Source of the DNA: an uncultured Spirochaetota bacterium
Lineage (GTDB): Bacteria; Spirochaetota; Brevinematia; Brevinematales; JAOACQ01
Assembly (NCBI GenBank): GCA_963806975.1
Contig: CAWEAK010000005.1
Span: 164,855 to 228,854, forward strand
Direction: 5' to 3'
Length of the DNA stretch: 64,000 nucleotides
Shown here: positions 8,282 through 57,444 of the stretch, piece after piece
Position numbering within the stretch: position 1 is the stretch's first letter
How the letters are laid out: each line of letters opens with the position of its first letter
Notes under the pieces: model-generated
What the model saw: the letters and a program-made list of their open reading frames with translations, nothing else
Told to the model about the DNA's origin: nothing
The model's database searches: none
Position numbers and translations under genes: made by a program

Positions 8282-8297
8282 TGGTATAATTATTGCT
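8282..8297 (+). promoter_or_regulatory. Putative sigma54 -24/-12 promoter A
   Basis: TGGTATAATTATTGCT = GG-N10-GC. Confidence 0.7.
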
Positions 8298-8434
8298 GAA
8301 AATATTGCTGTGTGATGGATAGAATTGTGCTTAATACTGAGTTGCAGTCATAACAACCATTGTATAATTCAGCTTCAGCATGGTATTTATTATTATCTGC
8401 GAAAAAAAACAAAATAAAAAATGGGAGCTTTGAT

Positions 8435-11400: not shown

Positions 11401-12465
11401 GAAACGGAATACGGCTTCACCACCAAGAGAAAGGTTGAATCCGCCACAGAAACCCTTGATAAAAAAACAGTCTATTTCAGTTATAATAAAGGCGAAAAAA
11501 TGACCACCTGGGGTAATGCATTCGTGCGCGGAACTACTGCGAAAGTCTATGCTTTGACAAGAAGCGATAATACTGTTATTTCCTATCAGCTTGGAGACAT
11601 ACAGGATGATACAACAATTATGCCGATTACTTTTAAAATAAGCGATGATTATATCCGTCAGGGTGATCTTCAAAGCTATCAAAAGTTAGACAGGCCTGCG
11701 CTCGATTCAAAGATACAGGCTTCCGAAGCCAATTATCAATTTGTGTACGATGATATGAATCCCTATAATCTTGCGGTTGGAAGCGATGATTTTAAAGAAA
11801 CGGCAAAGATAAAGAACAGGCAGTTCCGCCAGAGTTACTGCTGGGCTTATGACGGCGACAATCAACTGATTAAGAACTATTCCTTCTCCGATGAAAACAG
11901 CTACGGCGGATCTTTCAGCCTGAAAACGGCTTTTGGTTTATACATTGCATGGGATGTTTCAGCCGGATTTATCATTCAAACAAAGATAGCCAGCGGAGAA
12001 TTGAGCGTCCTGGGTACTTTCAGGCTGAATGTTGCCCGTTCAAAGGGTGAGAAGAAAAGCGAAGCCATCAATTATAATCTGGATGCCTCCGGAGAAAGAC
12101 AGGGCATAAAACAAGGCGGGAAATGGACGAATCCGAATAAAATTTACGCTTATCATTTCTACACTTACTGTCTGGCTCAGGATGCCAATAATTTTGAGGC
12201 TTTCTTTAATGACGTTGTGGATAAGGACTGGCTGACGAATGACAAAAATCCTTATGCACATCATCAGGAAGCCAAACGTTTGAGAGAACTGTCGGGAAGG
12301 CATAGCGACCCCTGGCGTATAACATACCGTGTGACCGAAATTCATAAATGCGGCGACTCTACACTTGAAGCTGCAAATTTAGGGGTACCGGATAGTATTA
12401 ACGATGAGGAAGCCGGCCGGATTATAATTGAGGATATGACTAATTATTATCAGCAGACTGAATAA
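8435..12465 (+). CDS. Large WG-repeat lipoprotein (~1342 aa once two +1 frameshifts near 8790 and 10360 are corrected)
   Basis: Lipobox-like LSLYSC, about seven FSEGLAxV...WGYID repeats, long unassigned C-terminal region; removing one base at each junction gives WGYID and ETLRYYLAF. Confidence 0.7.
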
Positions 12466-16524: not shown

Positions 16525-16537
16525 AAATTCCAAAAAA

Positions 16538-16605
16538 TCACCCTGTCAGGGTGAGAAAAATCACACCGTTTGGGTGATTACAAATCTATCATGAGACTCT
16601 ATAAT
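16538..16605 (+). promoter_or_regulatory. Two TCAC-N9-GTGA boxes (LuxR-type) plus TATAAT, copy 1
   Basis: TCACCCTGTCAGGGTGA 16538-16554, TCACACCGTTTGGGTGA 16561-16577, TATAAT 16600-16605; directly after the LuxR-HTH gene. Confidence 0.65.
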
Positions 16606-16623
16606 ATTATCATAATATAAAAG

Positions 16624-16735
16624 GAGCCGACACCGGCGTTGGGGGTAACGCGGCCCCGGGTGCTTAATTGCGCAAGACTTTGGTGACGTCCGGGCAGCCT
16701 TATTTTCGGATAAGTCTGCCCGGTAAAAACGGCTT
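16624..16735 (+). ncRNA. Candidate structured RNA, copy 1 (family unassigned)
   Basis: GC-rich island just downstream of a -10 box; stems GAGCCG/CGGCTT, CACCG/TGGTG, GCGTT/AACGC, CCGGGCAG/CTGCCCGG. Confidence 0.55.
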
Positions 16736-16837
16736 TTATGTTATTATCCAAAAAAGAAGTTTAACACTTAATAATGTTTTTCCAATCAGATGACAAAATT
16801 AATAATATTAACGCTTCTGATTTCCTTGAGAATGAAT

Positions 16838-16869
16838 GTATCATTTGACACAATTGTATCAAACGATAC
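16838..16869. promoter_or_regulatory. Double palindrome UAS copy B
   Basis: GTATCATTTGACAC-AATT-GTATCAAACGATAC. Confidence 0.72.
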
Positions 16870-17000
16870 AGAATGTTTATTCTCTTATCGTTATTTAAAA
16901 TCGTTATTTAAAAATTTTACAAAAAACATCATGGTTTTATTTCCAGATGATATAAGGAAATAAAAATAAATTGCGGAATTGATTGTACCGTTTGGGATTT

Positions 17001-17016
17001 TGGTATAATTTATGCT
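17001..17016 (+). promoter_or_regulatory. Putative sigma54 promoter B
   Basis: TGGTATAATTTATGCT = GG-N10-GC. Confidence 0.68.
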
Positions 17017-17087
17017 CATTATATAAAGTATTCCCGGTGGAATCGCCCCTAGTATAATTGTTTTTGTTAAGATTCAGGAGGTGTAAT

Positions 17088-17987
17088 ATGTTAAGAAAAA
17101 TTTCAGCGTTTGTGCTTTTTATAATAATAGTATTCTTCACAAGCGGCTGCAACCTTATTGCAAACTTGTATAATTCTTCATCATCGATTTCGTCTTCCAG
17201 TTCATCTTCAGTAAGCTCCAGCTCATCTTCGAGTTTATATAGTTCGTCTTCCGTGAGCTCCAGTTCGTCATCGTCTTCCAATAGTATAACCAACTATACT
17301 GTTGCATTTGACAGCCAGGGCGCGACGACAGCGGCAAGTCCGGCTGTCATAACTGTGACTAACCCCGCAAAGACTGTCACTACTCTTCCGGCTGCACCTG
17401 CTAAGACAGCTTATTACTTTAGCGGCTGGTACACTGCTATAAACGGCGGTGGTACACAGTTTACAACAAACACAATAGTTGCATCCAATATAACGGTTTA
17501 CGCTTTTTGGACAGTGCCGTCCTCTCCAAGCTGGGAGCCTTCTTTAACAACTTACGCCAGTTTCACCGCCTCGCTGGTCAATGGCGTGGTTGCGCCGGAC
17601 GGGACTACTACCGCGTATTCTCTAAATGCCTGCGGTGGCGGACCAAACGCTTATTACGTGAAACAGACACTCTCACTTACTGTGGGCCAGCAATACCAGT
17701 TCGGTTATTTCGCTAAGGCCGGGAGTCTTGACTCTTTCTGGTTTAACAGCTCGGATTTTTCGATCGGGTTCAATCTGGCCACCGGGACCGTTTCCACAAA
17801 TGACCCGCCTACCGGTTCGATAGTCTCCTGGGGAATAACACCAATAACTAATGGATGGTACTACTGCTATGCGACTATTACCGTAAGCAACGCTTCAACG
17901 ACCTACTCTATCGGCTGCGATAATAGCGCACATTGGAGCTACACCAGTGGTGGGGACAACATTTACCTCTGGCAAGGGACGTATTAA
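17088..17987 (+). CDS. Array lipoprotein 1: Ser linker, InlB B-repeat, carbohydrate-binding/head-spike-like domain
   Basis: AGGAGG RBS, FTSGC lipobox, YTVAFDSQG...FSGWYT...ITVYAFW, then APDGTTTA...GWYYC...IYLW. Confidence 0.85.
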   Translation: MLRKISAFVLFIIIVFFTSGCNLIANLYNSSSSISSSSSSSVSSSSSSSLYSSSSVSSSSSSSSNSITNYTVAFDSQGATTAASPAVITVTNPAKTVTTLPAAPAKTAYYFSGWYTAINGGGTQFTTNTIVASNITVYAFWTVPSSPSWEPSLTTYASFTASLVNGVVAPDGTTTAYSLNACGGGPNAYYVKQTLSLTVGQQYQFGYFAKAGSLDSFWFNSSDFSIGFNLATGTVSTNDPPTGSIVSWGITPITNGWYYCYATITVSNASTTYSIGCDNSAHWSYTSGGDNIYLWQGTY

Positions 17988-18083
17988 GCAGGATTTATAA
18001 AACCATAAAAAGTAATTATAAATTATTGATACAGTTAAAGAACTTAGATAAGCTTTTTTATGCAAAGATTTAGGAGGTGTAAA

Positions 18084-19265
18084 ATGTTAAGAAAAATTTC
18101 AGCGTTTGTGCTGTTTATAATAATAGTATACTTCACAAGCGGTTGCAACCTTATTGCAAACTTGAATAATTCTTCATCATCCAGCAGTTCTTCAAGCTCT
18201 TCACTTGGGTCCAGCAGCAGTTCAACCAATTCCTCTTCCGTAAGCTCCAGATCGTCTTCTGCAGGCTCCAGCTCGTCGTCTTCGTCGTCGTCCAGTTCTT
18301 CTTCCACCGGCAGCGTTACTCTTTATATCTCCGGTGTTGACCATAACGGCTATACCTGCGTATGGAGAGTTGCCATTAACGGGACTTCCACGAATATTAC
18401 TGAAAATATTGTGGCGAACTATATCGCGCCTAATTTAAGAGCAATGTCGCTTGCGAACGGCACCCTTTATTTAGCCGGAGAAGATAACAGCGATATTGGC
18501 TGTTACTGGACAATTTCGACAAACGGAGGAACGGCAACGGAACATTCTGTTAGTGTTTCCGGTTATCTGGGGTGGGCGGGTTATGATCCAGGCGGGAACT
18601 TTTGGTGTTCCGGCGCTCAGAGCAGTACTTATGATTATTATATTGAGAATGGCGGTGCTGCAACCTATTTTCAAACAGCAACACCCTGGGATTCTCCGGG
18701 AAATATGGTGTTTTCCGGCGGCAGTAGTTTTGCATTTTGGGGTGGAAATTCCTTAGGGGGTTATGTTTCAAATTTAACTGTAGTTTCAGCATTGCCTGGT
18801 TCAGCTTATTACGGCGGAATAGCGGTGAATAATGGAATTATCTATATAGACGGCATGGACACCAGCGGCACAACCTTTACAGTCTGGGTATCTTCAAATA
18901 ACTGCGCTTCATATAATTCCATCGCTTTAAATGGAACTGGTGCGATTTCCTACGCGATTCCATTCTATTCGGGCTCATACCTGTATGTTCCCGGCGCAAC
19001 GCTTTTGCCTTACCATCCCTGTTATTGGACAATAAACACTTCCTCAGGGATTGCTACTCAATACCAGTTAAATTATAAGAATTCATACGGCGGATGGGTA
19101 TATTCTATAACCTATACCAACAACACGGTCTATGCTGCCGGATACGATATTAATGCTTCTGCTCTTAATTCTCAGCAGCCTGCCTGCTGGATCAACGGCA
19201 ATGAGATTGTCCTGGACTCCCTTGGTTCATCCTGGACTTATATGGCGCTGGTTGTGACTTATTAA
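18084..19265 (+). CDS. Array lipoprotein 2: Ser linker plus probable beta-propeller (type A)
   Basis: FTSGC lipobox, poly-Ser, repeats such as LYLAG...CYW and VYAAG...CWING. Confidence 0.85.
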   Translation: MLRKISAFVLFIIIVYFTSGCNLIANLNNSSSSSSSSSSSLGSSSSSTNSSSVSSRSSSAGSSSSSSSSSSSSSTGSVTLYISGVDHNGYTCVWRVAINGTSTNITENIVANYIAPNLRAMSLANGTLYLAGEDNSDIGCYWTISTNGGTATEHSVSVSGYLGWAGYDPGGNFWCSGAQSSTYDYYIENGGAATYFQTATPWDSPGNMVFSGGSSFAFWGGNSLGGYVSNLTVVSALPGSAYYGGIAVNNGIIYIDGMDTSGTTFTVWVSSNNCASYNSIALNGTGAISYAIPFYSGSYLYVPGATLLPYHPCYWTINTSSGIATQYQLNYKNSYGGWVYSITYTNNTVYAAGYDINASALNSQQPACWINGNEIVLDSLGSSWTYMALVVTY

Positions 19266-19435
19266 TAAAATTAATATTAGATTAAATTTAACGACGGAGG
19301 AGGGTCAAGCAATCTCGATAGTATATATCCGGAACAAACGGCGTTAATAGTAGCAGCGGGTATATTGTTATAACTTATTAATATACTTAAAGAAGTTAGA
19401 TAAAGTTTTCTATGCAAAGATTCAGGAGGTCTAAT

Positions 19436-20698
19436 ATGTTAAGAAAATTTATGGATCTTGTACTTTTTATGGTAATCGTATCATTTATAAGCGGCTGCAA
19501 TCTTTTTTCCGGGAATAATTCTTCATCATCTTCGTCTTCTGTAAGTTCCAGTTCTTCCGCTTCATCTTCCGTAAGCTCCGGTTCGTCGTCATCATCTATC
19601 GCTGGAACCAATACCATTACATTTGACAGCCAGGGTGCAACAACGGCGGCAAGCCCGTCTAATATAACCGTAATAACGCCGACATCGAATGTCGGTACGC
19701 TTCCATCAGCGCCGGCAAAGACAACTTATTATTTTGCTGGCTGGTACACAGCAACAAACGGCGGCGGGACACAGTTTACAGCAAGTACAGCAGTTACGTC
19801 AAATATTACTGTTTATGCATACTGGATAGCCTCAGGTTCTTCCTGGAAGGGCTTCTACACCTTGCCGTCAAGCGGCGGCACTTGGCAGTCAGTGACCTAT
19901 GGTAACGGTGTTTTTGTCGCGGTTGCCAATAGCAGCACAGCAGCGTATTCAACTAACGGGACAAATTGGACGGCCAGCACCCTGCCATCTTCTGCCAGTT
20001 GGCAGTCAGTTACATATGGGAACGGTCTTTTTGTAGCGGTTGTCTATGGCGGTACAGCGGCGGCGTATTCAACCGATTACGGAAAAACCTGGACGTCCTG
20101 TAATCCCCTTCCAAGCTCTGCCGATTGGAATTCTGTAACTTACGGAAACGGCGTTTTTGTAGCGGTTGCTTTTGGAGGAGCAGCGGCGGCGTATTCAACC
20201 GACGGGATAAACTGGACGTCCTACAACCTGACAGGCGCTGCCGATTGGCAGTCAGTGACATACGGAAACGGCGTTTTTGTGGCGGTTGCCGAACTCAGCT
20301 CAACGGCGGCGTATTCAACTGACGGGAAAACCTGGACGGCCTACACCCTGCCAGGCAGCTCTTTAAGGTGGAGTTCAGTAACTTACGGGACCCCGGGCGG
20401 AGTTCCCACATTTGTAGCGGTTGCCTTTAGCAGCACAACGGCGGCGTATTCATCCGATGGGAAAACCTGGACGGCCTGCACCATTCCAAACCCTTCTTCT
20501 TACTGGCAGTCAGTGACATACGGAAACGGCGTTTTTGTCACGTTAGCCGAAGCCAGTACGTCGGCGGCATATTCAACCGATGGGATAAACTGGACGCCCT
20601 GCAGCCTTCCAAGCGCTTTATCCTGGTATTCAGTGACTTACGGAAACGGCGCTTTTGTATCGGTTGCCTATACCACAGCGGTAGCGTATTCACATTAA
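19436..20698 (+). CDS. Array lipoprotein 3: InlB B-repeat plus WxSVTYGNGVFVAV repeat propeller
   Basis: ISGC lipobox, seven ~40-aa WQSVTYGNGVFVAV...AAYSTDGxxW repeats. Confidence 0.88.
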   Translation: MLRKFMDLVLFMVIVSFISGCNLFSGNNSSSSSSSVSSSSSASSSVSSGSSSSSIAGTNTITFDSQGATTAASPSNITVITPTSNVGTLPSAPAKTTYYFAGWYTATNGGGTQFTASTAVTSNITVYAYWIASGSSWKGFYTLPSSGGTWQSVTYGNGVFVAVANSSTAAYSTNGTNWTASTLPSSASWQSVTYGNGLFVAVVYGGTAAAYSTDYGKTWTSCNPLPSSADWNSVTYGNGVFVAVAFGGAAAAYSTDGINWTSYNLTGAADWQSVTYGNGVFVAVAELSSTAAYSTDGKTWTAYTLPGSSLRWSSVTYGTPGGVPTFVAVAFSSTTAAYSSDGKTWTACTIPNPSSYWQSVTYGNGVFVTLAEASTSAAYSTDGINWTPCSLPSALSWYSVTYGNGAFVSVAYTTAVAYSH

Positions 20699-20711
20699 AC
20701 CGGAATAAATC

Positions 20712-20755
20712 AAGCCGCCCTTATCAGGGCTTGTCCTGTAAGGAGCGGCTTTTTT
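20712..20755 (+). terminator. Intrinsic terminator after lipoprotein 3
   Basis: AAGCCGC...GCGGCTT stem followed by a T run. Confidence 0.75.
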
Positions 20756-21010
20756 CTCAGGAAACTGGGAAGGCACGAAGCCTATTTTTAGCCTTAAATT
20801 GCATAAGCTTTCTATTCAAGCACATAAGTTCTTGCCCTTCAACTAGAGTTTACACTGAGTGAAGCTGAAGTACTCAGGGCATCGTTTCGCGTCTTCCTGT
20901 TAATTGTTTCTTTTCAATCAAAGTACGTTTTAGTCGGATGGACCATTTCTGGATATTTAGATGCATAGAATCTATAATTTAACTCCATATATTCAAGTCA
21001 ATTACAAAAA

Positions 21011-21078
21011 TCACCCTGACAGGGTGAGAAAAATCACATCGTTTGGGTGATTACAAATCTATCCTGAGACTCTATAAT
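21011..21078 (+). promoter_or_regulatory. LuxR-type box pair plus TATAAT, copy 2
   Basis: TCACCCTGACAGGGTGA, TCACATCGTTTGGGTGA, TATAAT at 21073. Confidence 0.65.
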
Positions 21079-21096
21079 ATTATCATAATATAAAAA

Positions 21097-21192
21097 GAGT
21101 CGACACCAGCGTTGAGGGTAACGCGGCCCAGGACTTTGGTGACGTCCGGGCATCCTTATCATTTGTGTAAGTCTGCCCGGTAAAAACGGTTT
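21097..21192 (+). ncRNA. Candidate structured RNA, copy 2 (lacks one internal hairpin)
   Basis: Homologous to 16624-16735; substitutions keep pairing through G-U. Confidence 0.5.
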
Positions 21193-21298
21193 ATATGTTC
21201 TTATCCGGAACAGAAGTTTAACACTGAAAAAATGTTTTTCCAATCATTTGACAAAATTAATAAACATGAACGCTTCTGATTTTTCCTTGAGAATGAAT

Positions 21299-21330
21299 GT
21301 ATCATTTGACACAATTGTATCAAATGATAC
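21299..21330. promoter_or_regulatory. Double palindrome UAS copy C
   Basis: GTATCATTTGACAC-AATT-GTATCAAATGATAC. Confidence 0.72.
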
Positions 21331-21450
21331 GGAATGTTTATTCTCTTATCTTTAATTAAAAATTTATACAAAAAGGCGCTATGATTTTATATTGAGATGA
21401 TATAAGGAAATAAAAATAAATCGCAGAATTGATAACGCCGTCTGGGATTT

Positions 21451-21466
21451 TGGTATAATTTATGCA
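21451..21466 (+). promoter_or_regulatory. Putative sigma54 promoter C
   Basis: TGGTATAATTTATGCA = GG-N10-GC. Confidence 0.68.
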
Positions 21467-21521
21467 TATTATATAAAGATTCCCGGTGTAATTATTGTTG
21501 TTAAGATTCAGGAGGTGTAAT

Positions 21522-22682
21522 ATGTTAAGAAAACTTTTGGCTGTTGTGCTTTTTATGATACTCATATCCTTTACCGGCGGATGTTATCTTGCAGAACATT
21601 GGAATGACTCATCGTCATCCAAAAGTTCGTCATTATCTTCACTTGGATCCAGCAGCAGTTTCTTCATCTTAAGCTCCGGTTCGTCGTCTTCGTCGTCTAG
21701 TTCTTCTTCCGCCGGCAGCGTTACTCTTTATATTTCCGGTGTTGACCATAATGGTTATACCTGCGTATGGACGGTAGCCATTAGCGGAAATACCACGAAT
21801 ATTACAGAAACTATTCTGCAGTCAACAACAGGTAGCGGAACAGGATATATGTCACTCAAGAACGACACTCTTTATATAGGAGGATATGATGGGTTGCTTA
21901 ATGGGGTTTACTGGACGATGAAGACTAACGGCACCTCTATTAATAAAAACGTGGTTTGTTCAACGAGTCAATATGGAGCTAATTTGAACTGGATTGGATT
22001 CGACCCAAGCGGAAACCTCTGGTATACCGGGAGCGAATCAGACATTAGCGCATACTATTGGGAAAACGGCACCGCGACCGCGATGCCGACATATTATTCA
22101 GGAGAATGGGCTACAGCAGGCAATATGGTGTTTTCCGGCGGTAATTATTATACACTATGGGGAGGCAATTACGCGGGGACCCTCATTATAAACGGGACCG
22201 CCGTTGCGTTTCCGACTTCTATCGGTTATTTCGGCGGAATAGCGGTGAATAACGGGATTATATATATCGACAGCATGGATACTACAGGCCTGAACTATAC
22301 CGTCTGGATATCTTCTAACAATGGCGTTTCCTATAGTTCCAAAGTATTGGGAATGGGTATGGATGGTTATTCAATCCCGTTCTATTCCGGATCATATCTC
22401 TATGTTCCGGGCGCGACGACATATCCCAGCGGGACACCCTGTTACTGGAAGATAGACGGCGGTTCAGGCAGCGCTACTCAAATTACGCTTGGTAGTAAGA
22501 ATCCATACGGGTATGTAAATTTTATAATTGTTACGAATAATATGGTCTATGCCGCGGGCCAGGACCAGCAGGTATCAGGTTCCAGCCAGCAGACTGTCTG
22601 CTGGATCAACGGTATTGAGATTGTCCTTGATAGCACCCTTAGTGCTAATCAGGGAAATAATACTATCGTTGTAACTTACTAA
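21522..22682 (+). CDS. Array lipoprotein 4: type A propeller, paralog of lipoprotein 2
   Basis: TGGC lipobox; shares GSVTLYISGVDHNGYTCVW and IPFYSGSYLYVPGAT with gene 2. Confidence 0.85.
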   Translation: MLRKLLAVVLFMILISFTGGCYLAEHWNDSSSSKSSSLSSLGSSSSFFILSSGSSSSSSSSSSAGSVTLYISGVDHNGYTCVWTVAISGNTTNITETILQSTTGSGTGYMSLKNDTLYIGGYDGLLNGVYWTMKTNGTSINKNVVCSTSQYGANLNWIGFDPSGNLWYTGSESDISAYYWENGTATAMPTYYSGEWATAGNMVFSGGNYYTLWGGNYAGTLIINGTAVAFPTSIGYFGGIAVNNGIIYIDSMDTTGLNYTVWISSNNGVSYSSKVLGMGMDGYSIPFYSGSYLYVPGATTYPSGTPCYWKIDGGSGSATQITLGSKNPYGYVNFIIVTNNMVYAAGQDQQVSGSSQQTVCWINGIEIVLDSTLSANQGNNTIVVTY

Positions 22683-22862
22683 TAAAATTAATATTAGATT
22701 AAATTTACCGGCGGAGGAAGATCAAGCTATTTCAATCCTTACGGTACACATATATCCGGAACAAACAGTGTTAATACCGGCAGAGGGTATATTATTATAA
22801 GTTATTGATACATTTAAAGAAGTTAGATAAAGTTTTCTATGCAAAGATTCAGGAGGTGTAAT

Positions 22863-24074
22863 ATGTTAAGAAAATTTATGGGTTTTGTGCTTTTTATGAT
22901 AATCGTATCATTTATAAGCGGCTGCAACCTTTTTTCCGGGAATAATTCTTCATCATCTTCGTCTTCTGTAGGTTCCAACTCGTCATCATCTTCTATCACC
23001 GGAACTTATACCGTTACTTTCGACAGCCAGGGTGCAACAACGGCGGCAAGCCCGTCTAATATAACCGTAATAACGCCGGCATCGAATGTCGGTACGCTTC
23101 CATCAGCGCCGGCAAAGACAACTTATTATTTTGTCGGCTGGTACACGGCAACAAACGGCGGCGGTATACAGTTTACGGCAAGCACTGCAGTTATATCTAA
23201 TATTACAGTCTATGCATATTGGATAGCCTCGGGTTTGACCTGGGCGGCCTGTAATCCCCTTCCAAGTTCTTCCAGTTGGCAGTCAGTGACTTACGGTAAC
23301 GGTGTTTTTGTAACTGTTGTTTATGGCGGTACAAATGCGGCGTATTCAACCGACGGGGTAAACTGGACAGCCTGCTACATGCCAATCGCTAACCATTGGT
23401 ATTCAGTAACTTACGGTAACGGCGTTTTTGTCGCGGTTGCTCAAGCCAGCACAACGGCAGCGTATTCAATTGATGGAAAAACATGGACGGCCTCAAGCCT
23501 TCCAAACAATACCTGTCAATCAGTGACTTACGGTAACGGCGTTTTTGTAACGGTTCCAAACGGCATAACAGGGGCGTATTCAACCGATAATGGAAAAACA
23601 TGGACGTCTTGCAATTCCCTTCCAAGCCAAGTCTCCTGGCAATCAGTCACCTATGGGAATGGTGTTTTTGTAGCTGTTGCCTCTGGCACATCAGCGGCAT
23701 ATTCAACCGATGGGAAAACCTGGATGCCCAGTCCACTTGGTTTGCCAAGTGCCTCTTGGTATTCAGTAACCTATGGGAACGGCGTTTTTGTGGCAGTTGC
23801 CGGAAATGGCACAACAGCGGCGACTTCTCCCGACGGGATTACCTGGACACAACGAACTCTGTCAAGCCCTGCCAACTGGCAATCAGTCACCTATGGGAAC
23901 GGCGTTTTTGTGGCGGTTGCCGGCGGCGGTACAAATGCGGCGACTTCTCCCGACGGGATTACCTGGACGGCTCAAACTCTGCCAGGCTCTGCCAATTGGT
24001 ATTCAGTGACTTATGGAAACGGCGTTTTTGTATCGGTTGCCTCTGGAAGCACAATGGCGGCGTATTCACATTAA
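22863..24074 (+). CDS. Array lipoprotein 5: InlB B-repeat plus GNGVFVAV repeats, paralog of lipoprotein 3
   Basis: ISGC lipobox, N-terminus nearly identical to gene 3, seven repeats, ends AYSH. Confidence 0.88.
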   Translation: MLRKFMGFVLFMIIVSFISGCNLFSGNNSSSSSSSVGSNSSSSSITGTYTVTFDSQGATTAASPSNITVITPASNVGTLPSAPAKTTYYFVGWYTATNGGGIQFTASTAVISNITVYAYWIASGLTWAACNPLPSSSSWQSVTYGNGVFVTVVYGGTNAAYSTDGVNWTACYMPIANHWYSVTYGNGVFVAVAQASTTAAYSIDGKTWTASSLPNNTCQSVTYGNGVFVTVPNGITGAYSTDNGKTWTSCNSLPSQVSWQSVTYGNGVFVAVASGTSAAYSTDGKTWMPSPLGLPSASWYSVTYGNGVFVAVAGNGTTAATSPDGITWTQRTLSSPANWQSVTYGNGVFVAVAGGGTNAATSPDGITWTAQTLPGSANWYSVTYGNGVFVSVASGSTMAAYSH

Positions 24075-24087
24075 CCCGGAATAAATC

Positions 24088-24118
24088 AAGCCGCCCTGAA
24101 TCGACGGGGCGGCTTTTT
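24088..24118 (+). terminator. Intrinsic terminator after lipoprotein 5
   Basis: AAGCCGCCC-loop-GGGCGGCTTTTT. Confidence 0.8.
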
Positions 24119-24850
24119 CGGCATATGTGTGTTTTTCACAGGAAGCCGGGAAGGCACGAAGCTTATTTTTAGCCTTAAATTGCAAAAACAATTTGGTATT
24201 ATTGCTATTATACTACAGGAACACCGGCGCACGGAGTAATATTTAGTTTATTATGTAATCTCTGTGCATCTGAACTTCTGTGGTTGAAAAAGTCGGCGAA
24301 AGTACATAGGCTTTCCATTCAAGTACAAAATTTCAGGTCATCCGGTTTTTGCGTACTTTTCGTTCCCTCGATACAATTGCTGTCGCAATCACTCGGGGAA
24401 CATAGTAGAGATATTTCATCACCCTGAAAACCCTCAATTAATAATGGATTTCAAGGGCGATGAAATTAAAAAAAACACACTTTAGTCGGATGAACCATTT
24501 CTGGATATTTAGATGCAATGAATCTATAATTTAACTCCATATATTTCAAACAATTGTAAAAATCACATCATTTGGGTGATTATACAAGGGCATGAGAATA
24601 TTTATGAAACAATGCTATCAATATTAAATGCATAACTAACTAAAACTTTCGTTTAAAGTCCTCCCTCACAAATATTAGAGCAAGATGTTGTGTCACAAGT
24701 ACCGTAAAGGTAATTATCTATCAATTTATTCTAGAAAAATAAACTTTAAGTGTTAATTCACAATGAAACCGGATAAATTGCCGGCTTTAGCACAACGAGG
24801 GTGGGCGGTCACTTTCGGAAGTTTATTAAAATGTTTTTGTTAAAGTTATA

Positions 24851-25099
24851 TTAAGCGGTCTTTTGTATTTTATAAGCCCTGCCCATAGGTAGAAATCCTG
24901 TAATATCTTCGGTTTCCAGCTTACGCTTAATATCATCGAAAAAACGGATCGTTGTAATAGGATACATGATTTCGCCACACCGGAGACACACTAAAGCTTC
25001 CGTTTTTAATGTGGCTGTATTGTTACCGCCGCGGAGGGTTTCTTCAATGTCTCTTAATTCTACATCACCTCCACAGACGGGACATTTTTCAAAAAGCAT
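24851..25099 (-). CDS. YgiT-type zinc finger protein (putative antitoxin)
   Basis: CPVCGG...VCLRCGE, adjacent to a DUF4258 gene. Confidence 0.85.
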   Translation of the reverse strand: MLFEKCPVCGGDVELRDIEETLRGGNNTATLKTEALVCLRCGEIMYPITTIRFFDDIKRKLETEDITGFLPMGRAYKIQKTA

Positions 25100-25411
25100 T
25101 TATTTCCTCCTCTTTTTCCAGTCGATCCATCTCTTCGGATCCGGTTTATAAACGGTTATCAACACAGCGCTTTCCGTCAGCGGATTGTAAGCCCAGACGC
25201 TATGTATTGGTTCCGATTTACCGTTAAAGCTAAGAATTAAACAACTTGGGAACGGTAAATCTTCTGTGTATTCTTCAATAATAAAACCTTCATTCAATGA
25301 AGCGATTATCTCTCCAATATTAAAACCGTCGGAAGCAGCTTCAACCCAAGCATGTTTCGTAATCAATAGCCGGTCTGAATTTACAGCCTTAATAATATTT
25401 TTTAATTCCAT
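25100..25411 (-). CDS. DUF4258 protein (putative toxin)
   Basis: ITKHA...IIEEY...PSCLIL...PIHSVW...LITVYKPDPKRW. Confidence 0.85.
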   Translation of the reverse strand: MELKNIIKAVNSDRLLITKHAWVEAASDGFNIGEIIASLNEGFIIEEYTEDLPFPSCLILSFNGKSEPIHSVWAYNPLTESAVLITVYKPDPKRWIDWKKRRK

Positions 25412-25731
25412 ATATAAAAATTATACATTTTTTCATCATAAAAAACAAATATACTTTCGTTACTATAATGAAACGAATAAGATCGCTCAATTCAGCAAAA
25501 TTGTAGGCATCATGTCGAACTTCGTGTTCGCCGCCGAATCTTCGATTCGGCGGCCTTACAATAAAACGAAAGATTAACGGCACCGCCGTATGTAGCTTGC
25601 CGTTATCGAACTGATGTTTGACGGCCTATGCAGCATCCTGATGCCGGCAGAACTTTAAAAGGCGTTTCCGTTATTAAAAACGAAGAATGAATCTATAATA
25701 TATCTCTATATATTCCAATCAATTACAAAAA

Positions 25732-25799
25732 TCACCCTGATAGGGTGAGATAAATCACATCGTTTGGGTGATTACAAATCTATCCTGAGACTCTATAAT
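25732..25799 (+). promoter_or_regulatory. LuxR-type box pair plus TATAAT, copy 3
   Basis: TCACCCTGATAGGGTGA, TCACATCGTTTGGGTGA, TATAAT at 25794. Confidence 0.65.
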
Positions 25800-25817
25800 A
25801 TTATCATAATATAAAAG

Positions 25818-25929
25818 GAGCCGACACCAGCGTTGGGGGTAACGCGGCCCCGGGTGCTTAATTGCGCAAGACTTTGGTGACGTCCGGGCAGACTTATTTT
25901 CGGATAAGTCTGCCCGGTAAAAACGGCTT
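25818..25929 (+). ncRNA. Candidate structured RNA, copy 3
   Basis: Perfect 14-bp stem CCGGGCAGACTTAT/ATAAGTCTGCCCGG with U-UUCG-G loop, plus the other conserved stems. Confidence 0.55.
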
Positions 25930-26034
25930 ATATGTTATTATCCGGAACAGAAGTTTAACATTTAATAATGCTTTTCCAATCATTTGACAAAATTAATAAT
26001 ATTAAACGCTTCTGATTTTTCCTTGAGAGCAAAT

Positions 26035-26066
26035 GTATCATTTGACACAATTGTATCAAATGATAC
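26035..26066. promoter_or_regulatory. Double palindrome UAS copy D
   Basis: GTATCATTTGACAC-AATT-GTATCAAATGATAC. Confidence 0.72.
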
Positions 26067-26185
26067 GGTTTGTTTACTTTTTTATCTTTATTTAAAAAAT
26101 TTATATAAAAAAGCTATGGTTTTATTTCCAGATGATATAAGGAAATAAAAATAAATTGAGGAATTGATTGTACCGTTTGGGATTT

Positions 26186-26201
26186 TGGTATAATTTATGC
26201 T
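26186..26201 (+). promoter_or_regulatory. Putative sigma54 promoter D
   Basis: TGGTATAATTTATGCT = GG-N10-GC. Confidence 0.68.
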
Positions 26202-26257
26202 CATTATATAAAGTATTCCCGGTGTAATTATTGCTGTTAAGATTCAGGAGGAATAAT

Positions 26258-27409
26258 ATGTTAAGAAAAATTTTGGCTCTTGTGCTTTTTATGATAATCA
26301 TATCCTTTATCAGCGGCTGTAACCTTATTGCAAACTTGAATAATTCTTCATCATCGAGTTCATCTTCAGTAAGCTCCGGCTCGTCTTCGAGTTTATATAG
26401 TTCGTCTTCCGTGAGCTCAAGTTCGTCATCGTCTTCCAATAGTATAACCAATTATACTGTTGCATTTGACAGCCAGGGCGCGACGACAGCGGCAAGTCCA
26501 GCTGTCATAACTGTGACTAACCCCGCAAAGACTGTCACTACGCTTCCTTTACCGCCGATTAAGACAGGCTTCAATTTCGCAGGCTGGTATATTGCTACAA
26601 ACGGCGGCGGTACACAGTTTACAACAAACACAATAGTTGCATCCAATATAACGGTTTACGCTTTTTGGAATATCATCTTTAACTACACAGGCGCCGTACA
26701 AACATGGACTATTCCAAGCGGTGTGACTAAGGTAAGAATTACTGTTGCAGGTGCCGCAGGAAGTGATGGCTCTACTAATGATATTATTACCCCTGTAATA
26801 GCCGGAAAAGGCGGCATTATGACCGCAGATTTCTCAGTCACTTCAGGTCAGGTATTAAACCTGTATGTTGGCGGACTCGGGGTAAATAGTACAAGTGGCG
26901 GATTTAATGGAGGTGGGCCGGCGATTCAAAGCGCTTCTTATGCAGGCGGCGGGGCATCTGATGTGCGCATCGGAGGTACAGCCCTCAACAACCGGGTTAT
27001 AGTTTCTGGCGGAGGCGGTGGATATGGCGGAAATGGAGGAATTGGCGGAGATGGAGCCGGTGTACTGAATGCAAACGGCGGTAATGGGCTTACCACGACT
27101 AATATAGCTCTTGAAAGTGGCGCCATTACAACAGGAGGCAGCGGCGGTACAGAATCGGGAGGTGGAACTGCCGGATCGGGTAATTGGGGAACTGGAACAG
27201 CAGGCACATTAGGACAGGGAGGTACCGGCTATCAATATGGAGGTAGTGGCGGCGGCGGCTACTACGGTGGGGGTGGGGGTGGATCTGATACTGAGGGCGC
27301 CCATGCCAGTGGAGGTGGTGGATCAAGCTACCTCGATCCTTCAGGCACATATATCTCCGGGACAAATGGAGTTAATACCGGTAACGGGTATATTATTATT
27401 AGTTATTAA
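26258..27409 (+). CDS. Array lipoprotein 6: InlB B-repeat plus glycine-rich domain
   Basis: N-terminus nearly identical to gene 1, then FNYTGAVQTWTIP...GGGASDVR...GGGGYYGGGGG...GGGGSSY. Confidence 0.87.
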   Translation: MLRKILALVLFMIIISFISGCNLIANLNNSSSSSSSSVSSGSSSSLYSSSSVSSSSSSSSNSITNYTVAFDSQGATTAASPAVITVTNPAKTVTTLPLPPIKTGFNFAGWYIATNGGGTQFTTNTIVASNITVYAFWNIIFNYTGAVQTWTIPSGVTKVRITVAGAAGSDGSTNDIITPVIAGKGGIMTADFSVTSGQVLNLYVGGLGVNSTSGGFNGGGPAIQSASYAGGGASDVRIGGTALNNRVIVSGGGGGYGGNGGIGGDGAGVLNANGGNGLTTTNIALESGAITTGGSGGTESGGGTAGSGNWGTGTAGTLGQGGTGYQYGGSGGGGYYGGGGGGSDTEGAHASGGGGSSYLDPSGTYISGTNGVNTGNGYIIISY

Positions 27410-27568
27410 AATGGAATTATGTATAGAAACAACCGGGCAGCTTATGCCTGCCCGGTAAAAAATAGGTATATTTTCCAAAACAGAAGTTTAACACTGAAAA
27501 ATGCTTTTCCGGTTTTGTAACAAAATCAATAAAACTAAACGATTCTGATTTTTTCCTTGAGAATGAAT

Positions 27569-27600
27569 GTGTCATTTGACACGATTGTATCAAATGATAC
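27569..27600. promoter_or_regulatory. Double palindrome UAS copy E (downstream -12 element deleted)
   Basis: GTGTCATTTGACAC-GATT-GTATCAAATGATAC. Confidence 0.7.
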
Positions 27601-27787
27601 GGTATGTTTATTCTCTTATCTTTATTTAAAAATTTATACAAAAAACATTATGGTTTTATTTCCAGATGATATAAGGAAATAAAAATAAATCTGGAATTGA
27701 TTGCACCGTTTGGGATTCTGGTATAAAGTATCACTGTTGGAATCGCACCCAATGTAATTATTGTTGTTAAGAATCAGGAGGAATAAT

Positions 27788-29562
27788 ATGTTAAGAAAAT
27801 TTTTGGCTATTATGCTTTTTATGATAATCGTATCCTTTACCAGCGGATGTTACCTTGTTCTCAACATGAATGATTCTTCGTCTTCCAGCAGTTCTTCAAG
27901 TTCTTCTGGCTTTTCTTCCAGCAACAGTTCTTCAATTATTACATCGGCTAATAACACTATATTTGCCTTTGGCTTAACGAGCGCACTTAATTCTGGGGCA
28001 GGAATAAATAACGATGTTACAGGGATCATCTCCAATACTAACATCAACTTGACCGTACCTTATGGTGCTATATTAACGAATCTTATAGCTGTATATTCAA
28101 ATACCGGGGTAACTGTAAAAATCGGTTCTAATATACAAACCAGCGGAGTAACGGCAAATAATTTTACAAGCCCGGTTATCTATACTGTTACGGCAGCCGA
28201 TGGTTCTACACGGAATTATGCTGTTACGGTAACGATAGCTTCAAGTTCAGCCAAAGCAATTACAGCCTTCAGTTTCACAAGCGCCCTTAACGGAGCATTG
28301 GCATAAGCAGCGATGTCGCGGGTGTAATTTCCGGAACTAACATCACTTTAAATGTGCCTTTTGGTACTGTTGTTACGAGCCTTAAAGCAACATTTTCCAC
28401 AACCGGAACTAATGTAAGAATAGGCACTACCACACAAACCAGCGGAGTAACTGCAAATTCCTTCACAAGTCCGGCGATCTATACCGTTACGGCTGCCGAT
28501 AATTCGACACAGAATTATTTAGTTACAGTAACAATAGCTCCAAATTCAGCCAAGGCTATTACTGCCTTCAGTTTCACAAGCGCTCTTAATTCGGAGCCGG
28601 TATTTCTTATGATGTTATAGGTATTACTAATGAACACATCTAAAACTATTACTTTAGCAATACATACAATACAGCAAGCAGTCTTAAGGCGACATTTTCA
28701 ATAAACGGCGCATCGGTTAAAGTGGGATCAACAGTTCAGACCAGCGGTAACTGCAAATGACTTTACAAGCCCGGTGTTTATCAGTTACTGCAGCCGTTGC
28801 TTGACCAGCTCAATGAATTATACCGTTTCAGCCCCACATAATCAACTAACTATTCGGCTACAGGCGGCCAGCAGGCATTTAACGTTCCGGCCGGAGTGAC
28901 TACTATATATGTAGATGCCGCTGGTGCCCAGGGGTCAGGCGGTAATAATGTATATGTTTGTAACAATGGACCAACGCCTCCTTATGGGAAAGGGGGTCGT
29001 GTACAGGCCTGGATAACGGTAACTCCCGGGGAGACTCTAAATATCTATGTCGGAAGTCAGGCAGGGTATAACGGTGGCGGATTGGGCAGGACAGCGTCCA
29101 CTTCCGTTAACACTTCAGGCAACGGCGGAGGCGAGGATATCAGGCAAGGCGGAACGGCTCTGACTTCACGCGTAATAGTGGCTGGCGGCGGCGGCGGCGG
29201 CGCGGACGGAATCAATGGAATTGGGGGCAGCGGTGGCGGAACCGGAGACATGGGAGCGGGTGGTAATGCTTCAGGTGTTGGGGCTCCCGGCACACAGGGA
29301 GGTGGCGGAGCCGGTGGTTTCGGGTAATTCTCGTGGAACTAATGGACAGGGTCGGCTCCCTTGGACAGGGTGGCAATTGGGGGACAAATACTGCTGGTAC
29401 CTCCGGTGGCGGAGGTGGCGGTGGTGGATACTACGGCGGAGGTGGCGGAGGATACGGTTATGACGGCGGTGGGGGCGGTGGCGGTTTAGCCTGGTACCGA
29501 GTGGTGGCACTGGCACATCCGGTTATCAAACAAGTGATGGTTATATAAAAATTTACTGGTGA
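27788..29562 (+). pseudogene. Array lipoprotein 7: three Ig-like (DUF5018-type) repeats plus glycine-rich domain, multiple frameshifts
   Basis: FTSGC lipobox, repeats AKAITAFSF...QTSGVTANxFTSPVIYTVTAAD, Gly-rich tail ending GYIKIYW*; split over ORFs at 27761, 28354, 28896, 29333. Confidence 0.7.
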
Positions 29563-29605
29563 TGTTAAGTTTGTTGATACTTTAAATAGTCTACAAAAAA
29601 TGGCC

Positions 29606-29637
29606 GTATCATTTGATACAAATGTATCAAATGATAC
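29606..29637. promoter_or_regulatory. Double palindrome UAS copy F
   Basis: GTATCATTTGATAC-AAAT-GTATCAAATGATAC. Confidence 0.72.
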
Positions 29638-29748
29638 GGAATGTCAATTCTCTTATCTTTATTTAAAAAATTTATACAAAAATATTTTTGTTTTTATATG
29701 CATATAATATATGAAAATAAATTAAAGGGAATACGACATTTATAGTTT

Positions 29749-29764
29749 TGGTATGATTATTGCT
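29749..29764 (+). promoter_or_regulatory. Putative sigma54 promoter F
   Basis: TGGTATGATTATTGCT = GG-N10-GC. Confidence 0.7.
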
Positions 29765-29853
29765 AAATATATTGTGTTGTCCGGTAGAATTGCTTTTGTA
29801 AATCGGCAATTTATCCGGCTAGTTGTTGATTTATTCTTATAAGGAGGAATAAT

Positions 29854-31245
29854 ATGTTAAGAAAGTCTTTAATATCTATTTCTTGTACAATAATCCTATG
29901 CTCTTTAAGCAGTTGCTATCTTACTCAACATTGGAATGATTCATCATCATCCAAAAGTTTGTCAAGTTCAACGAGCGTTTTTCAAACTCATCATCAGGAT
30001 TTACAAATAGCACAACTACAAATTATTTTAGTATAGGCAGTACGAATTTTACGGTGGTAAATGCCACTAATATTTTAGGAACAAACATCTCTATTTCTCT
30101 TTATGATACAAGAGGATTATTAACAATTTCAAACTGGGCTGCGTCTAATATGATTATAACGAATCTTTGGCAGAATATCACAAACGCTTATACAAATACA
30201 AACTTACTAATTTTTTCACTTACCAATAAATATTTCTTTACTAATTGGATATCTAACGCAAACTGTACGAATACAATAAAAATAACCGTTTATCTTGTGG
30301 GGCCTAATAACGTTAGCAATGTCTGCCTCTGGACGCTTCATTCTGATGATATGTCTCTACAAATATAATCTTTGCACCCAGGGGAGCCGGTGGCCGTCCA
30401 TTTCTTTACAACGGAACACTATATATTCCGGAAGTCATGGACAATATACCGTTGATTACAACAATAGAAAAGCCTGTTATTGGACGGTATCCACAAACGG
30501 TGGGACAGCGGTTGAAACAACACTTTCCGCGGGAAGCGGTTACGGCGGTGCAATTAATTCAATCGCAGTGGATGGCAGCGGAAATGTATGGGCGATTGGA
30601 AATAATGATGGAGAATATCCAGTATATTATTATAACGGTACTGAGAATTCGCTTGGTAATAATGCATGGAATACCGCATACAGCGTTCAATTATACGGAG
30701 GAAGCTATTATATAAGTGTCCGCTCTAATAACTGTTATTGGATTGATATAAATGGAACTTCGGTAATACCGACAGCGGGGGATAACTATGCTTTTGGCAT
30801 GGTTGTGACAAACAGTGTTATTTATGCGGCATCGGATCTGGGAGGCGGTTCATTATTAATTTCTTCAAATAACGGCAGTACATGGAATCAGGTTACACTT
30901 CCCAATGGCGTTCCTATGGGAAATGGCGGGGCAATCTGCTTTGATAACGGTACAGTTTATATCTGCGGAAGTACTGCAAGCTCTCCGAATCTTCCTTGCT
31001 ATTGGACTGTTACTTCAAACGGGATTGCCACTCAGATTAATTTACAACACCAGCAGAATGTAAACGGTAGGGCACAGGATATAAGCGTTTTTGACGGATC
31101 GGTGTATGTTGCCGGGACAGAAAACATTTCCGGAAATGGAGTCTCATGCTACTGGATAGGGACAAATCAGTATATACTTGATCCAGGGGATTGTGAAGTT
31201 TATGGGGCGTACTCCGGGTTAATTGGTATTCTTGCTGTACATTGA
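29854..31245 (+). CDS. Array lipoprotein 8: TN-rich segment plus type A propeller (frameshifts near 29980 and ~30350)
   Basis: AGGAGG RBS, LSSC lipobox, HWNDSSSSKS as in gene 4, CYWTVSTNGGTA as in gene 2; split over three ORFs. Confidence 0.7.
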
Positions 31246-31329
31246 ATAGGAAAGAATATATTTGTTACTTGCTGAATTTGGCAGTAGCGGTAATCCGGTT
31301 TGAATTTACTCATTTCAGGGAGAAATAAT

Positions 31330-32547
31330 ATGTTAAGAAAGTTTTTAGTGTTTTTACTTTTTATGATAATAATATCCTTCACAAGCGGATGCTACCTTGT
31401 TTCTCACATGAATGATTCTTCGTCTTCCAGTTCATCTTCAATAAGCTCCGGCTCTTCGTCATCTTCAATTGGAATAACATATACAGTCACCTTTGACGGC
31501 CAGGGAGCCACGACAGCGGCAAATCCGGCCAGTATAGTTGTAACACCTCCGGCAACAAATATTGGGACATTACCGATGGCTCCGGCTAAAACAGGCTATT
31601 ATTTCAGCGGCTGGTATACGGCGCCGAACGGCAGTGGAACGGCGTTTACAACTAACACAATTGTTACTTCAAACATTTCGATTTATGCAAAATGGATAGT
31701 CTCTGGTTCGGTATGGACGGCTCAAGCCCTGTCAAGTTCTGCTTTGTGGCATTCAGTTACCTATGGGAACGGTGTTTTTGTCGCGTTTGCTGAAAATATC
31801 TCATCAGCGGCGACCTCAACCGATGGAATTACCTGGACAGTCCGAACTCTGCCTATTTCTGCCGACTGGTATTCAGTTACCTATGGAAATGGCGTTTTTG
31901 TCGCCGTTGCCGGGGGACTAAGCACTACTGCGGTGACTTCACCCGATGGAATTACCTGGACGGTTCGAAATCTGCCATTCTCTGCTAATTGGTATTCAGT
32001 GACATACGGAAACGGTACTTTTGTCGCGGTTGCCAGCGGTGGAACAACAGCGGCGTATTCAATAGATAATGGAATTACATGGCACTCTTCGACCATGCCA
32101 AGCTTATCCTACTGGCAATCAGTAACCTACGGGAACGGTACTTTTGTCGCGACTGCTTATAGCAGTACTTCAGCGGCGTATTCATCTGATGGAATTAATT
32201 GGACGCCCAGTCCCAGTGGATTACCAAACCCTACCAGCTGGATATCAGTAACCTACGGGAATGGTGTTTTTGTCGCGGTTGCCCAGGATAGCTCAGTAGC
32301 AACTTCACCCGAAGGAATGACCTGGACAGCACGGACAATGCCCTCTGCCGGGCAAGCAGTGACTTATGGGAACGGTGTTTTTGTCGCGGTTGCCAATAGC
32401 AGTTCAGCGGCATCAACTTCAACCGATGGAATCACCTGGACAGCCCGAACAATGCCAAGCTCTGCAGGCTGGATATCAGTAGCTTATGGGAACGGCGTTT
32501 TCGTCGCGGTTGCCCAAAGCAGTACATCAGAGGCAACTTCACATTAA
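31330..32547 (+). CDS. Array lipoprotein 9: InlB B-repeat plus GNGVFVAV repeats
   Basis: FTSGC lipobox, Ser linker, seven repeats, ends ATSH. Confidence 0.88.
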   Translation: MLRKFLVFLLFMIIISFTSGCYLVSHMNDSSSSSSSSISSGSSSSSIGITYTVTFDGQGATTAANPASIVVTPPATNIGTLPMAPAKTGYYFSGWYTAPNGSGTAFTTNTIVTSNISIYAKWIVSGSVWTAQALSSSALWHSVTYGNGVFVAFAENISSAATSTDGITWTVRTLPISADWYSVTYGNGVFVAVAGGLSTTAVTSPDGITWTVRNLPFSANWYSVTYGNGTFVAVASGGTTAAYSIDNGITWHSSTMPSLSYWQSVTYGNGTFVATAYSSTSAAYSSDGINWTPSPSGLPNPTSWISVTYGNGVFVAVAQDSSVATSPEGMTWTARTMPSAGQAVTYGNGVFVAVANSSSAASTSTDGITWTARTMPSSAGWISVAYGNGVFVAVAQSSTSEATSH

Positions 32548-32561: not shown

Positions 32562-32596
32562 AAAAAGCCGCCCAAACTAAACAGGGCGGCTTTTTT
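32562..32596. terminator. Bidirectional intrinsic terminator
   Basis: AAAAAGCCGCCC-loop-GGGCGGCTTTTTT between convergent genes. Confidence 0.85.
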
Positions 32597-53947: not shown

Positions 53948-56893
<2,946 letters not shown>

Positions 56894-57441: not shown

Positions 57442-57444
57442 GTA

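Follow-up and report, generated by a model that had tools for sequence, protein, structure and literature searches.

Nine neighbouring genes with similar beginnings and dissimilar ends raise the question of whether they form a device that keeps renewing or switching the proteins displayed by a cell, or a standing set left by past shuffling. They lie in a window of 64,000 nucleotides (nt) from an uncultured sediment spirochaete of the Brevinematales (assembly GCA_963806975.1, contig CAWEAK010000005.1, positions 164,855 to 228,854). In this window, nine co-oriented genes of the surface-lipoprotein type (g1-g9), whose products are predicted to be located on the surface, occupy positions 17088-32547 of the + strand. 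A preliminary description made from the sequence alone had read them as a modular array that diversifies a surface display under shared sigma-54 and LuxR control. Our analysis indicated that the array is probably a chromosomal paralog family of spirochaete lipoproteins arranged in five sigma-54-dependent transcription units, shuffled in evolution and without a programmed switch. The nine-gene modular array, its origin by duplication and recombination and its sigma-54 control therefore stood, whereas LuxR control, active diversification and one of the reported leader similarities did not.

Array organisation and common leader

Genome-wide searches were based on genome G000, which comprises 2.46 Mb in 28 contigs and is 58% complete. 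A six-frame search of this genome for MLRK...[GSA]C gave 10 matches, namely the nine array genes and one unrelated sequence on contig C7, and so upheld the earlier statement that nine co-oriented genes begin with such a leader followed by poly-Ser. All nine genes read MLRK, 14-15 hydrophobic residues and [ST/IS/TG/SS][GS]C, with the Cys at residue 21; the basic n-region, hydrophobic core and lipobox Cys of a lipoprotein signal were thus present in 9/9, and a Ser-rich stretch followed the Cys. Both enzymes for which such products would be substrates were encoded in G000: LspA (PF01252) at two places and Lgt (PF01790) split over two frames. AGGAGG stood 6-7 nt ahead of the MLRK ATG in every array gene, and this spacing fixes the nine starts at 17088, 18084, 19436, 21522, 22863, 26258, 27788, 29854 and 31330. 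Each product would be exported and lipidated at Cys21, and the Ser-rich tether would hold the tip away from the cell, thereby presenting differing binding heads; we infer surface exposure and ligand binding from these features of the predicted proteins.

The lipoprotein family extends beyond the array. With the leader and the first tether residues (C[YN]L..[HN][WML]N[DN]SSS) as common traits, it comprised at least 14 genes in G000, nine in the array and five elsewhere (C7, C8, two on C11 and C15). The pattern C[YN]L..[HN][WML]N[DN] after the Cys, which is looser than the MLRK pattern, found 12 members, 7 of them in the array; g3 and g5 carried the variant CNLFSGNN at these residues. The array itself sits on a 290-kb contig with an rRNA operon and unique flanks. 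Its features are as follows (RBS, ribosome-binding site; GTA, gene transfer agent; TN-rich, Thr/Asn-rich).

16526-17087 (+): head 1, with far-upstream element 16526-16837, tandem palindrome 16838-16869, sigma-54 -24/-12 element 17001-17015 and RBS
17088-17987 (+): g1; leader (g2-like patch in g6-like flanks), poly-Ser, Flg_new, GTA/phage spike-fibre tip
18084-19265 (+): g2; leader, long poly-Ser, type A (PCYW-repeat, Kelch-like) propeller
19293-19379 (approximate, +): fossil Gly-rich 3' end between g2 and g3
19436-20698 (+): g3; leader, poly-Ser, Flg_new, GNG seven-bladed Asp-box propeller
20713-20755 (+): intrinsic terminator after g3
20968-21521 (+): head 4, with palindrome 21299-21330 and sigma-54 element 21451-21465
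21522-22682 (+): g4; leader, poly-Ser, type A propeller
22720-22806 (+): fossil Gly-rich 3' end between g4 and g5 (82% identity with 27321-27407)
22863-24074 (+): g5; leader, poly-Ser, Flg_new, GNG propeller
24089-24118 (+): intrinsic terminator after g5
25689-26257 (+): head 6, with palindrome 26035-26066 and sigma-54 element 26186-26200
26258-27409 (+): g6; leader, poly-Ser, Flg_new, ALK/LTK-type Gly-rich tip
27462-27787 (+): head 7 (short), with palindrome 27569-27600 and imperfect -24/-12 element 27719-27733 (no GC)
27788-29548 (+): g7; leader, poly-Ser, three Ig-like repeats, Gly-rich tip; frame-broken in the window
29604-29853 (+): head 8, with palindrome 29606-29637 and sigma-54 element 29749-29763
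29854-31245 (+): g8; divergent leader, TN-rich stalk, type A propeller; frame-broken in the window
31330-32547 (+): g9; leader, poly-Ser, Flg_new, GNG propeller
32566-32596 (+): intrinsic terminator after g9

Predicted shared sigma-54 control

Five heads of about 250-550 bp, with identities of 83-92%, precede g1, g4, g6, g7 and g8. Heads 1, 4 and 6 share approximately 550 nt at 83-91% identity, head 7 approximately 410 nt and head 8 approximately 115 nt. Terminators with an equal stem, AGCCGCC(C)...G(G)GCGGCT followed by a T run, stand after g3, g5 and g9. Together, the five heads and three terminators divide the array into five predicted transcription units, g1-g2-g3, g4-g5, g6, g7 and g8-g9.

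Within each head, the 14-bp palindrome GTATCAwwTGAYAC stands twice in tandem, with 18 bp between the centres. Such tandem sites occurred 11 times in G000: in the five array heads, at window position 8128, twice on C7 and three times on C15. At 10 of the 11, the element TGGYAY-N5-WTGC followed 143-178 nt downstream on the same strand, although this element had only 41 matches on both strands of the 2.46-Mb genome. Within the array, the palindromes lay 143-163 nt upstream of the -24/-12 element in all five heads, and the pairing was repeated at the six other sites. Four heads fitted the consensus with GG at -24 and GC at -12, and the g7 head its loose form only. The sites outside the array have textbook -24/-12 forms such as TGGCATAGGAATTGC and precede REC, Hpt, CheA-like and hydrolase genes. 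The genome also encodes rpoN and five strong sigma-54 activators (PF00158). These genes and the genome-wide pairing bore out the earlier proposal of shared sigma-54 control, which can now be regarded as a prediction well supported by computation.

At G000 C7:229759-231400 (L052), a gene for a REC-AAA-HTH_8 activator (229759-231165) ends just ahead of a C7 tandem palindrome, which is followed by a perfect -24/-12 element, a REC-only gene and an Hpt protein. Its product is a candidate cognate activator for the whole regulon. An NtrC-type activator of this kind would bind the tandem palindrome approximately 150 nt upstream of each -24/-12 element and turn all units on together, the target of its helix-turn-helix (HTH) domain being the operator sequence GTATCAAATGATAC with its half-sites. 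This sigma-54/activator operator is crisp and testable. For LuxR control, the support comes down to the adjacency of a hybrid kinase with a GerE domain (13228-16524), to which we assign no regulatory role; the palindromes sit where a sigma-54 activator binds, and the proposal was not supported.

The far-upstream element of approximately 310 nt occurs in three copies of about 90% identity (16526-16837, 21000-21302 and 25721-26038). It contains two TCACCC...GGGTGA palindromes and a strong CCGGGCAG...CTGCCCGG hairpin, and no open reading frame (ORF). Rfam models matched only rRNA and tRNA in the window and nothing more in head 1 at E<=1, and RNAalifold found compensatory change in 0/89 pairs of the three copies. 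One possibility is that the element serves as a second operator, perhaps of the adjoining GerE-domain kinase.

Stalks and tips

The stalk described as an InlB B-repeat in five genes corresponded to Flg_new (PF09479, the Listeria-Bacteroides repeat), found behind the tether above its gathering cut-off of 27 bits in g1 (45.9 bits), g3 (43.4), g5 (46.9), g6 (46.4) and g9 (50.8); the same hidden Markov model (HMM) found no Flg_new in g2, g4, g7 and g8. In g7, the stalk consists of three repeats of approximately 100 residues, whose below-threshold match to DUF5018 underlies the label "Ig-like", and the stalk of g8 is rich in Thr and Asn.

The four tip classes proposed previously agreed with HMM matches (g1 and g6) or predicted folds (type A and GNG), so that the tips on display would be beta-propellers of two kinds, Gly-rich domains and a phage spike-fibre domain. 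The g1 tip matched GTA_spike_fiber (NF048003) over residues 146-295 with 66.8 bits (cut-off 36), the tail protein family phrog_5939 at 1.2e-11, and the solved phage or GTA proteins in PDB entries 8env, 9b45 and 6tb9 at E values of 5e-5 to 8e-4. The g6 tip matched the ALK/LTK Gly-rich domain PF12810 with 55 bits (cut-off 24.5) as well as five PHROGs of unknown function. Against PF12810, a g7 fragment reached 20.7 bits; the fragmentation of the gene into frames accounts for this score under the cut-off.

No Pfam or NCBIfam family matched the type A tip of g2, g4 and g8. Its AlphaFold2 model (pLDDT 88.6, pTM 0.89) was a beta-propeller, and the Foldseek matches listed were beta-propellers, mostly Kelch domains or designed propellers, with TM scores of 0.52-0.57 by query length and 0.40-0.63 by target length at 10-16% identity. 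As no Kelch HMM matched, the resemblance is one of fold, not of family membership. Searching with the whole of g2 yielded at least four matches, three of them the window's own, the candidates being swamped by poly-Ser words. Among 1.84 billion representatives, a profile of the type A tip matched 1153 proteins at E<=1e-3, including seven at E<=1e-30, of which three were the window's own. Pfam models covered the repeats in 0/16 profile matches scanned. The relatives carry PCYW repeats behind lipoprotein leaders and include proteins of approximately 350 residues (P0009, P0010 and P0014 among them). The type A tip therefore appears to belong to a widespread, uncurated family of PCYW-repeat, Kelch-like propellers, to which this array draws attention.

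The GNG tip of g3, g5 and g9 was predicted as a seven-bladed propeller (pLDDT 92.5), similar in fold to Ycf48 (TM 0.72-0.75) and virginiamycin B lyase (TM 0.85). Each repeat shows ST/PDGxxWT, as in seven-bladed Asp-box (BNR/Ycf48-like) propellers; no BNR model of Pfam matched, and EPTP gave whole-protein scores only, without any single matching stretch. The nearest named loci belonged to metagenome-assembled genomes (MAGs) titled uncultured Spirochaetota and Brevinematales. A comparison with the ESM Atlas returned only unnamed clusters (recognition 1610, below the useful level). As reported earlier, the set of type A gene, GNG gene and terminator occurs three times, each time with the equal terminator stem.

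Array-type stalks bear other tips elsewhere in G000: Ig-like repeats are joined to an FG-GAP propeller on C8, and TN-rich stalks to NHL propellers on C11 and C15. Modular combination is therefore a habit of the whole family. Small arrays of this kind also occur in relatives, since a genome of the same genus, G001, has two tandem genes for GNG-propeller lipoproteins with a poly-Ser tether (C11; L050 6649-8735), which share a leader of their own, unlike MLRK.

Frame breaks in g7 and g8

As read in the window, neither g7 nor g8 is one open frame; g7 is split over at least five frame pieces and g8 over three. Short contigs from run X1 showed an extra T behind 28297 (g7) and an extra G behind both 30347 and 30429 (g8), each of which lengthens a homopolymer. 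Adding these three bases lengthens the open stretch of g7 from 172 to 277 residues and lets g8 be read in one frame from 29940 as far as its natural stop at 31245. Each difference comes from one contig at a depth of 2.4-2.6 and is weak taken singly; all three restore the frame, and the breaks there are therefore probably assembly errors. For these three breaks, the idea that g7 and g8 are pseudogenes was dropped. Run X1 covers three of at least seven breaks, those without cover lying at about 28600-28900, at about 29300 and at 29940-30036. Runs X2 and X3 gave only low-complexity pieces of 20-45 nt on Gly-rich and poly-Ser DNA and were disregarded.

Genes that are split or contain in-frame stops were also found elsewhere in the window, namely a WG-repeat gene (8360-10388), a penicillin-binding protein transpeptidase gene (42684-44327) and a BlaR1-like gene (49957-51034). 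In the remainder of the genome, rpoN (one TGA) and lgt are likewise broken (G000 C5:55736-56197, C13:11699-12534). Several unrelated broken genes fit indel and base errors across the assembly. The locus thus serves as a warning that apparent pseudogenes in such arrays may be homopolymer errors.

Origin of the modular architecture

Heads and leaders were 83-95% identical at the nucleotide level, compared with 45-70% for tips, which agrees with the preliminary description that leaders and intergenic DNA are much more conserved than tips. The clearest case is that of g1 and g6, which have 1 kb in common (head, tether and Flg_new) at 88% identity and then unrelated tips. The g1 leader is 95% identical to the g2 leader and approximately 80% identical to the g6 leader. 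In a patch of about 60 columns, which starts at the RBS and stops just short of the lipobox Cys codon, g1 agrees with g2 at 12 of 14 informative sites, whereas the flanks go with g6 (permutation p=0.0003). Leader 1 thus carries a significant patch attributable to gene conversion, and its reported resemblance to leader 2 was substantiated. The resemblance reported between leaders 7 and 9 was not, as g7 is nearer to g4 and g6 (90%) than to g9 (81%).

Synonymous divergence followed the same lines. Leader dS was 0-0.17 within g1/g2 and g4/g6/g7, 0.70 for g1/g6 and 1.05 for g2/g4; the leaders of g4, g6 and g7 had dS values of 0-0.08 despite differing bodies. For g2/g4, which share a tip class, leader and tip dS were 1.05 and 1.13. 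Between g3 and g5, 12 of 66 four-fold sites differed in the 5' module (0.18), compared with 46 of 120 in the tip (0.38; Fisher p=0.005), which marks the 5' module as younger than the tip. Behind g4 and g2 lies a fossil of about 87 nt, the 3' end of a Gly-rich gene with its stop codon, 82% identical to the end of g6; its last 15 nt or so may be recognisable behind g1, a weak trace. The presence of Gly-rich fossils behind type A genes implies that tips were replaced inside an older Gly-rich gene before the cassette of type A and GNG genes was duplicated.

The mosaic in leader 1, the four-fold divergence of g3/g5 and the Gly-rich fossils uphold the proposal of duplication with recombination at the leader and linker. 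Sequence comparison shows that the architecture arose through tandem duplication of units, through exchange among the conserved 5' modules (head, leader, linker and Flg_new) by gene conversion and homologous recombination, and now and then through illegitimate replacement of a tip. The array thereby offers dated traces of tip swapping. In G001, the array module was absent from 18 kb beside the match to its EAL gene, a region where synteny is uncertain.

Evaluation of alternative explanations

Several observations weigh against the reading of a sigma-54-controlled paralog family shuffled by recombination. The genome is a draft, 58% complete and with indel errors. In the heads, the sequence TGGTATAAT can also be read as a sigma-70 promoter of the extended -10 type; this candidate was set behind sigma-54 after the genome-wide pairing with palindromes emerged, and sigma-70 or dual promoter use at TGGTATAAT is possible. 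The g7 head lacks the -12 GC. As the five array heads were copied from each other, approximately 5-6 independent lineages, not 11, stand behind the pairing of palindrome and promoter, and conservation lends no support, the exact tandem operator being found in 0/11 family genomes searched. As for recombination, the difference between 5' and tip divergence was not significant for g2/g4 (p=0.36) and g5/g9 (p=0.13), and within tip classes leader and tip relationships agree.

An explanation by selection only holds that the 5' modules are alike through purifying selection on regulatory DNA and signal peptides, with no later recombination. The heads do hold a functional-looking operator, promoter and RBS, and leaders and first tether residues are conserved family-wide, other loci included. 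However, the tip also exceeds the 5' module in divergence at synonymous and four-fold sites, and the far-upstream element, which has no recognised function, is equally conserved. Moreover, a g2-type leader patch within the g6-type flanks of g1 is beyond what selection can produce, and g1 and g6 have non-homologous tips behind 88%-identical 5' modules of 1 kb. Selection only is thus an unlikely explanation. Misassembly of a repetitive draft MAG, which would have created the repeated heads and cassettes or their order, is more improbable still. The assembly does contain indel errors that also split the WG-repeat, BlaR1-like, lgt and rpoN genes, and no contig placed on the locus bridges a repeat. 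Nevertheless, the copies differ by 8-25% and so represent neither collapsed nor duplicated reads, 13 of the 16 X1 contigs placed on the locus match it at >=99% (with listed pieces in g3, g4, g5, g6, g7 and g8), and the 290-kb contig has unique flanks.

Programmed or ongoing diversification, as in the vls, vsp/vlp and Mycoplasma vsa/vsp systems, would have recombination at the leader and linker keep making new combinations or switch the expressed tip. The 5' modules provide 100-1000 bp of homology between units, and a clear conversion patch and fossils of tip replacement are present. A joint that skips within the g9 repeats in run X1 (31913->32245) is weak, comprising one contig with a 25-nt side; a side of <30 nt in a 120-nt repeat is flagged unreliable, and the joint was not counted. 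Neither silent cassettes, nor an invertible segment with a recombinase, nor mutagenesis by reverse transcriptase was found at the locus. Every array gene has its own RBS and leader, and the five units have their own promoters, so that there are no silent cassettes. The inverted repeats at the locus are palindromic operators only. The earlier remark that the window lacks recombinases and reverse transcriptases was partly correct: 0/6 genome matches for tyrosine recombinases and 0/1 for serine recombinases lie on this contig, and G000, at its 58% completeness, gave no RVT_1 match, but two ORFs for DDE transposases (40304-40915 and 60878-62248) are present in the window. The exchanged blocks differ by 5-17%, and the exchange events are therefore old. 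A tip dN/dS of approximately 0.35-0.4 indicates purifying selection on tips. No alternative arrangement was seen among the contigs available, which are short, of low depth and unable to show rearrangements. The claim of an active diversification locus was thus not borne out, and such a mechanism seems improbable. The array instead looks like a toolkit of co-expressed binding proteins that has been shuffled in evolution, not like a programmed switch that presents one protein at a time.

Genomic neighbourhood

Three further features lie in or beside the array.

8128-8296 (+): tandem palindrome 8128-8159 and sigma-54 element 8282-8296 upstream of a gene for a WG-repeat lipoprotein; lies outside the array and belongs to the same putative regulon
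13228-16524 (+): hybrid sensor kinase (7TMR-DISM, HisKA, HATPase, REC, PAS, GerE/LuxR HTH; Pfam, NCBIfam), directly upstream of the array
24851-25411 (-): toxin-antitoxin-like pair (DUF4258 and YgiT-type zinc finger) interrupting the array

The toxin-antitoxin-like pair stands between direct repeats of approximately 50 nt (24517-24566 and 25686-25735), which correspond to the start of a head, as if the pair had been inserted into the array. Upstream, positions 2477-12465 contain genes for a GH9 glycoside hydrolase, an RHS-repeat protein, WG-repeat lipoproteins, a 715-residue protein without family and an ankyrin-repeat protein; these are other genes of the exterior type. A complete rRNA operon (16S, two tRNAs, 23S and 5S) lies at 53768-59259 on the minus strand. 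Its presence within the 290-kb contig suggests a long-read assembly.

Comparison with known systems

The vlp, vsp and vsa genes of Mycoplasma are multigene lipoprotein families with highly conserved 5' regions (promoter and signal peptide) and divergent mature parts. Their switching relies on promoter slippage or on a dedicated recombinase that inverts DNA at specific sites. The array resembles them in its conserved 5' regions and divergent mature parts. In contrast, its contig has no such recombinase, and no invertible segment or homopolymer promoter tract was found at the locus.

Control by sigma-54 also has parallels. Francke et al. 2011 (PMC3162934) argue that sigma-54 has a central part in controlling the bacterial exterior. 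As in exterior regulons of the sigma-54/NtrC type, the genes concerned encode exported or surface proteins, and a -24/-12 element is accompanied by a palindromic activator site approximately 150 nt away. Unlike in those regulons, the same operator stands here in front of signalling genes (CheA-like and REC) as well as five tandem units from one paralog family.

It is plausible that the array is undescribed for this lineage, as the preliminary description had supposed: judging by titles and abstract openings, none of the papers found that name both Brevinematales and lipoprotein concerned such an array. The principle, however, is already known from Borrelia. The review PMC10016077 describes erp genes with conserved promoter/operator DNA, leaders and first mature residues, the external parts being of many independent origins; recombination was frequent in the past, the genes are co-expressed, and no recombination took place in culture or in the course of infection. 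The closest described system is the Erp family of Borrelia burgdorferi (OspE/OspF/Elp, "upstream homology box"). Like Erp, the array has non-homologous mature parts behind a conserved promoter/operator, a conserved leader and conserved first mature residues; its members recombined in the past and are predicted to be co-expressed. Unlike Erp, with one locus per cp32 prophage plasmid, it is chromosomal and tandem and lies beside an rRNA operon. Its promoters are of the sigma-54 type with an upstream activator site, and its products have long Ser-rich tethers and recognisable tip folds (propellers, Gly-rich and phage spike fibre). The array would therefore work like erp without being a member, the likeness being one of architecture.

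A broader reading is conceivable, although we regard it as rather doubtful: the sigma-54 head of approximately 1 kb, together with leader, sorting residues, Ser tether and in some genes Flg_new, might act as a portable display module that captures foreign binding domains, including phage receptor-binding parts, while one activator puts the whole set on the surface at once. If so, the array would be a free-living counterpart of Borrelia erp that serves breadth of ligands (particles, polysaccharides and phage decoys), not immune evasion. The comparison in any case shows that erp-like family building, in which one promoter-leader-sorting module is joined to many unrelated heads, exists outside host-associated Borrelia.

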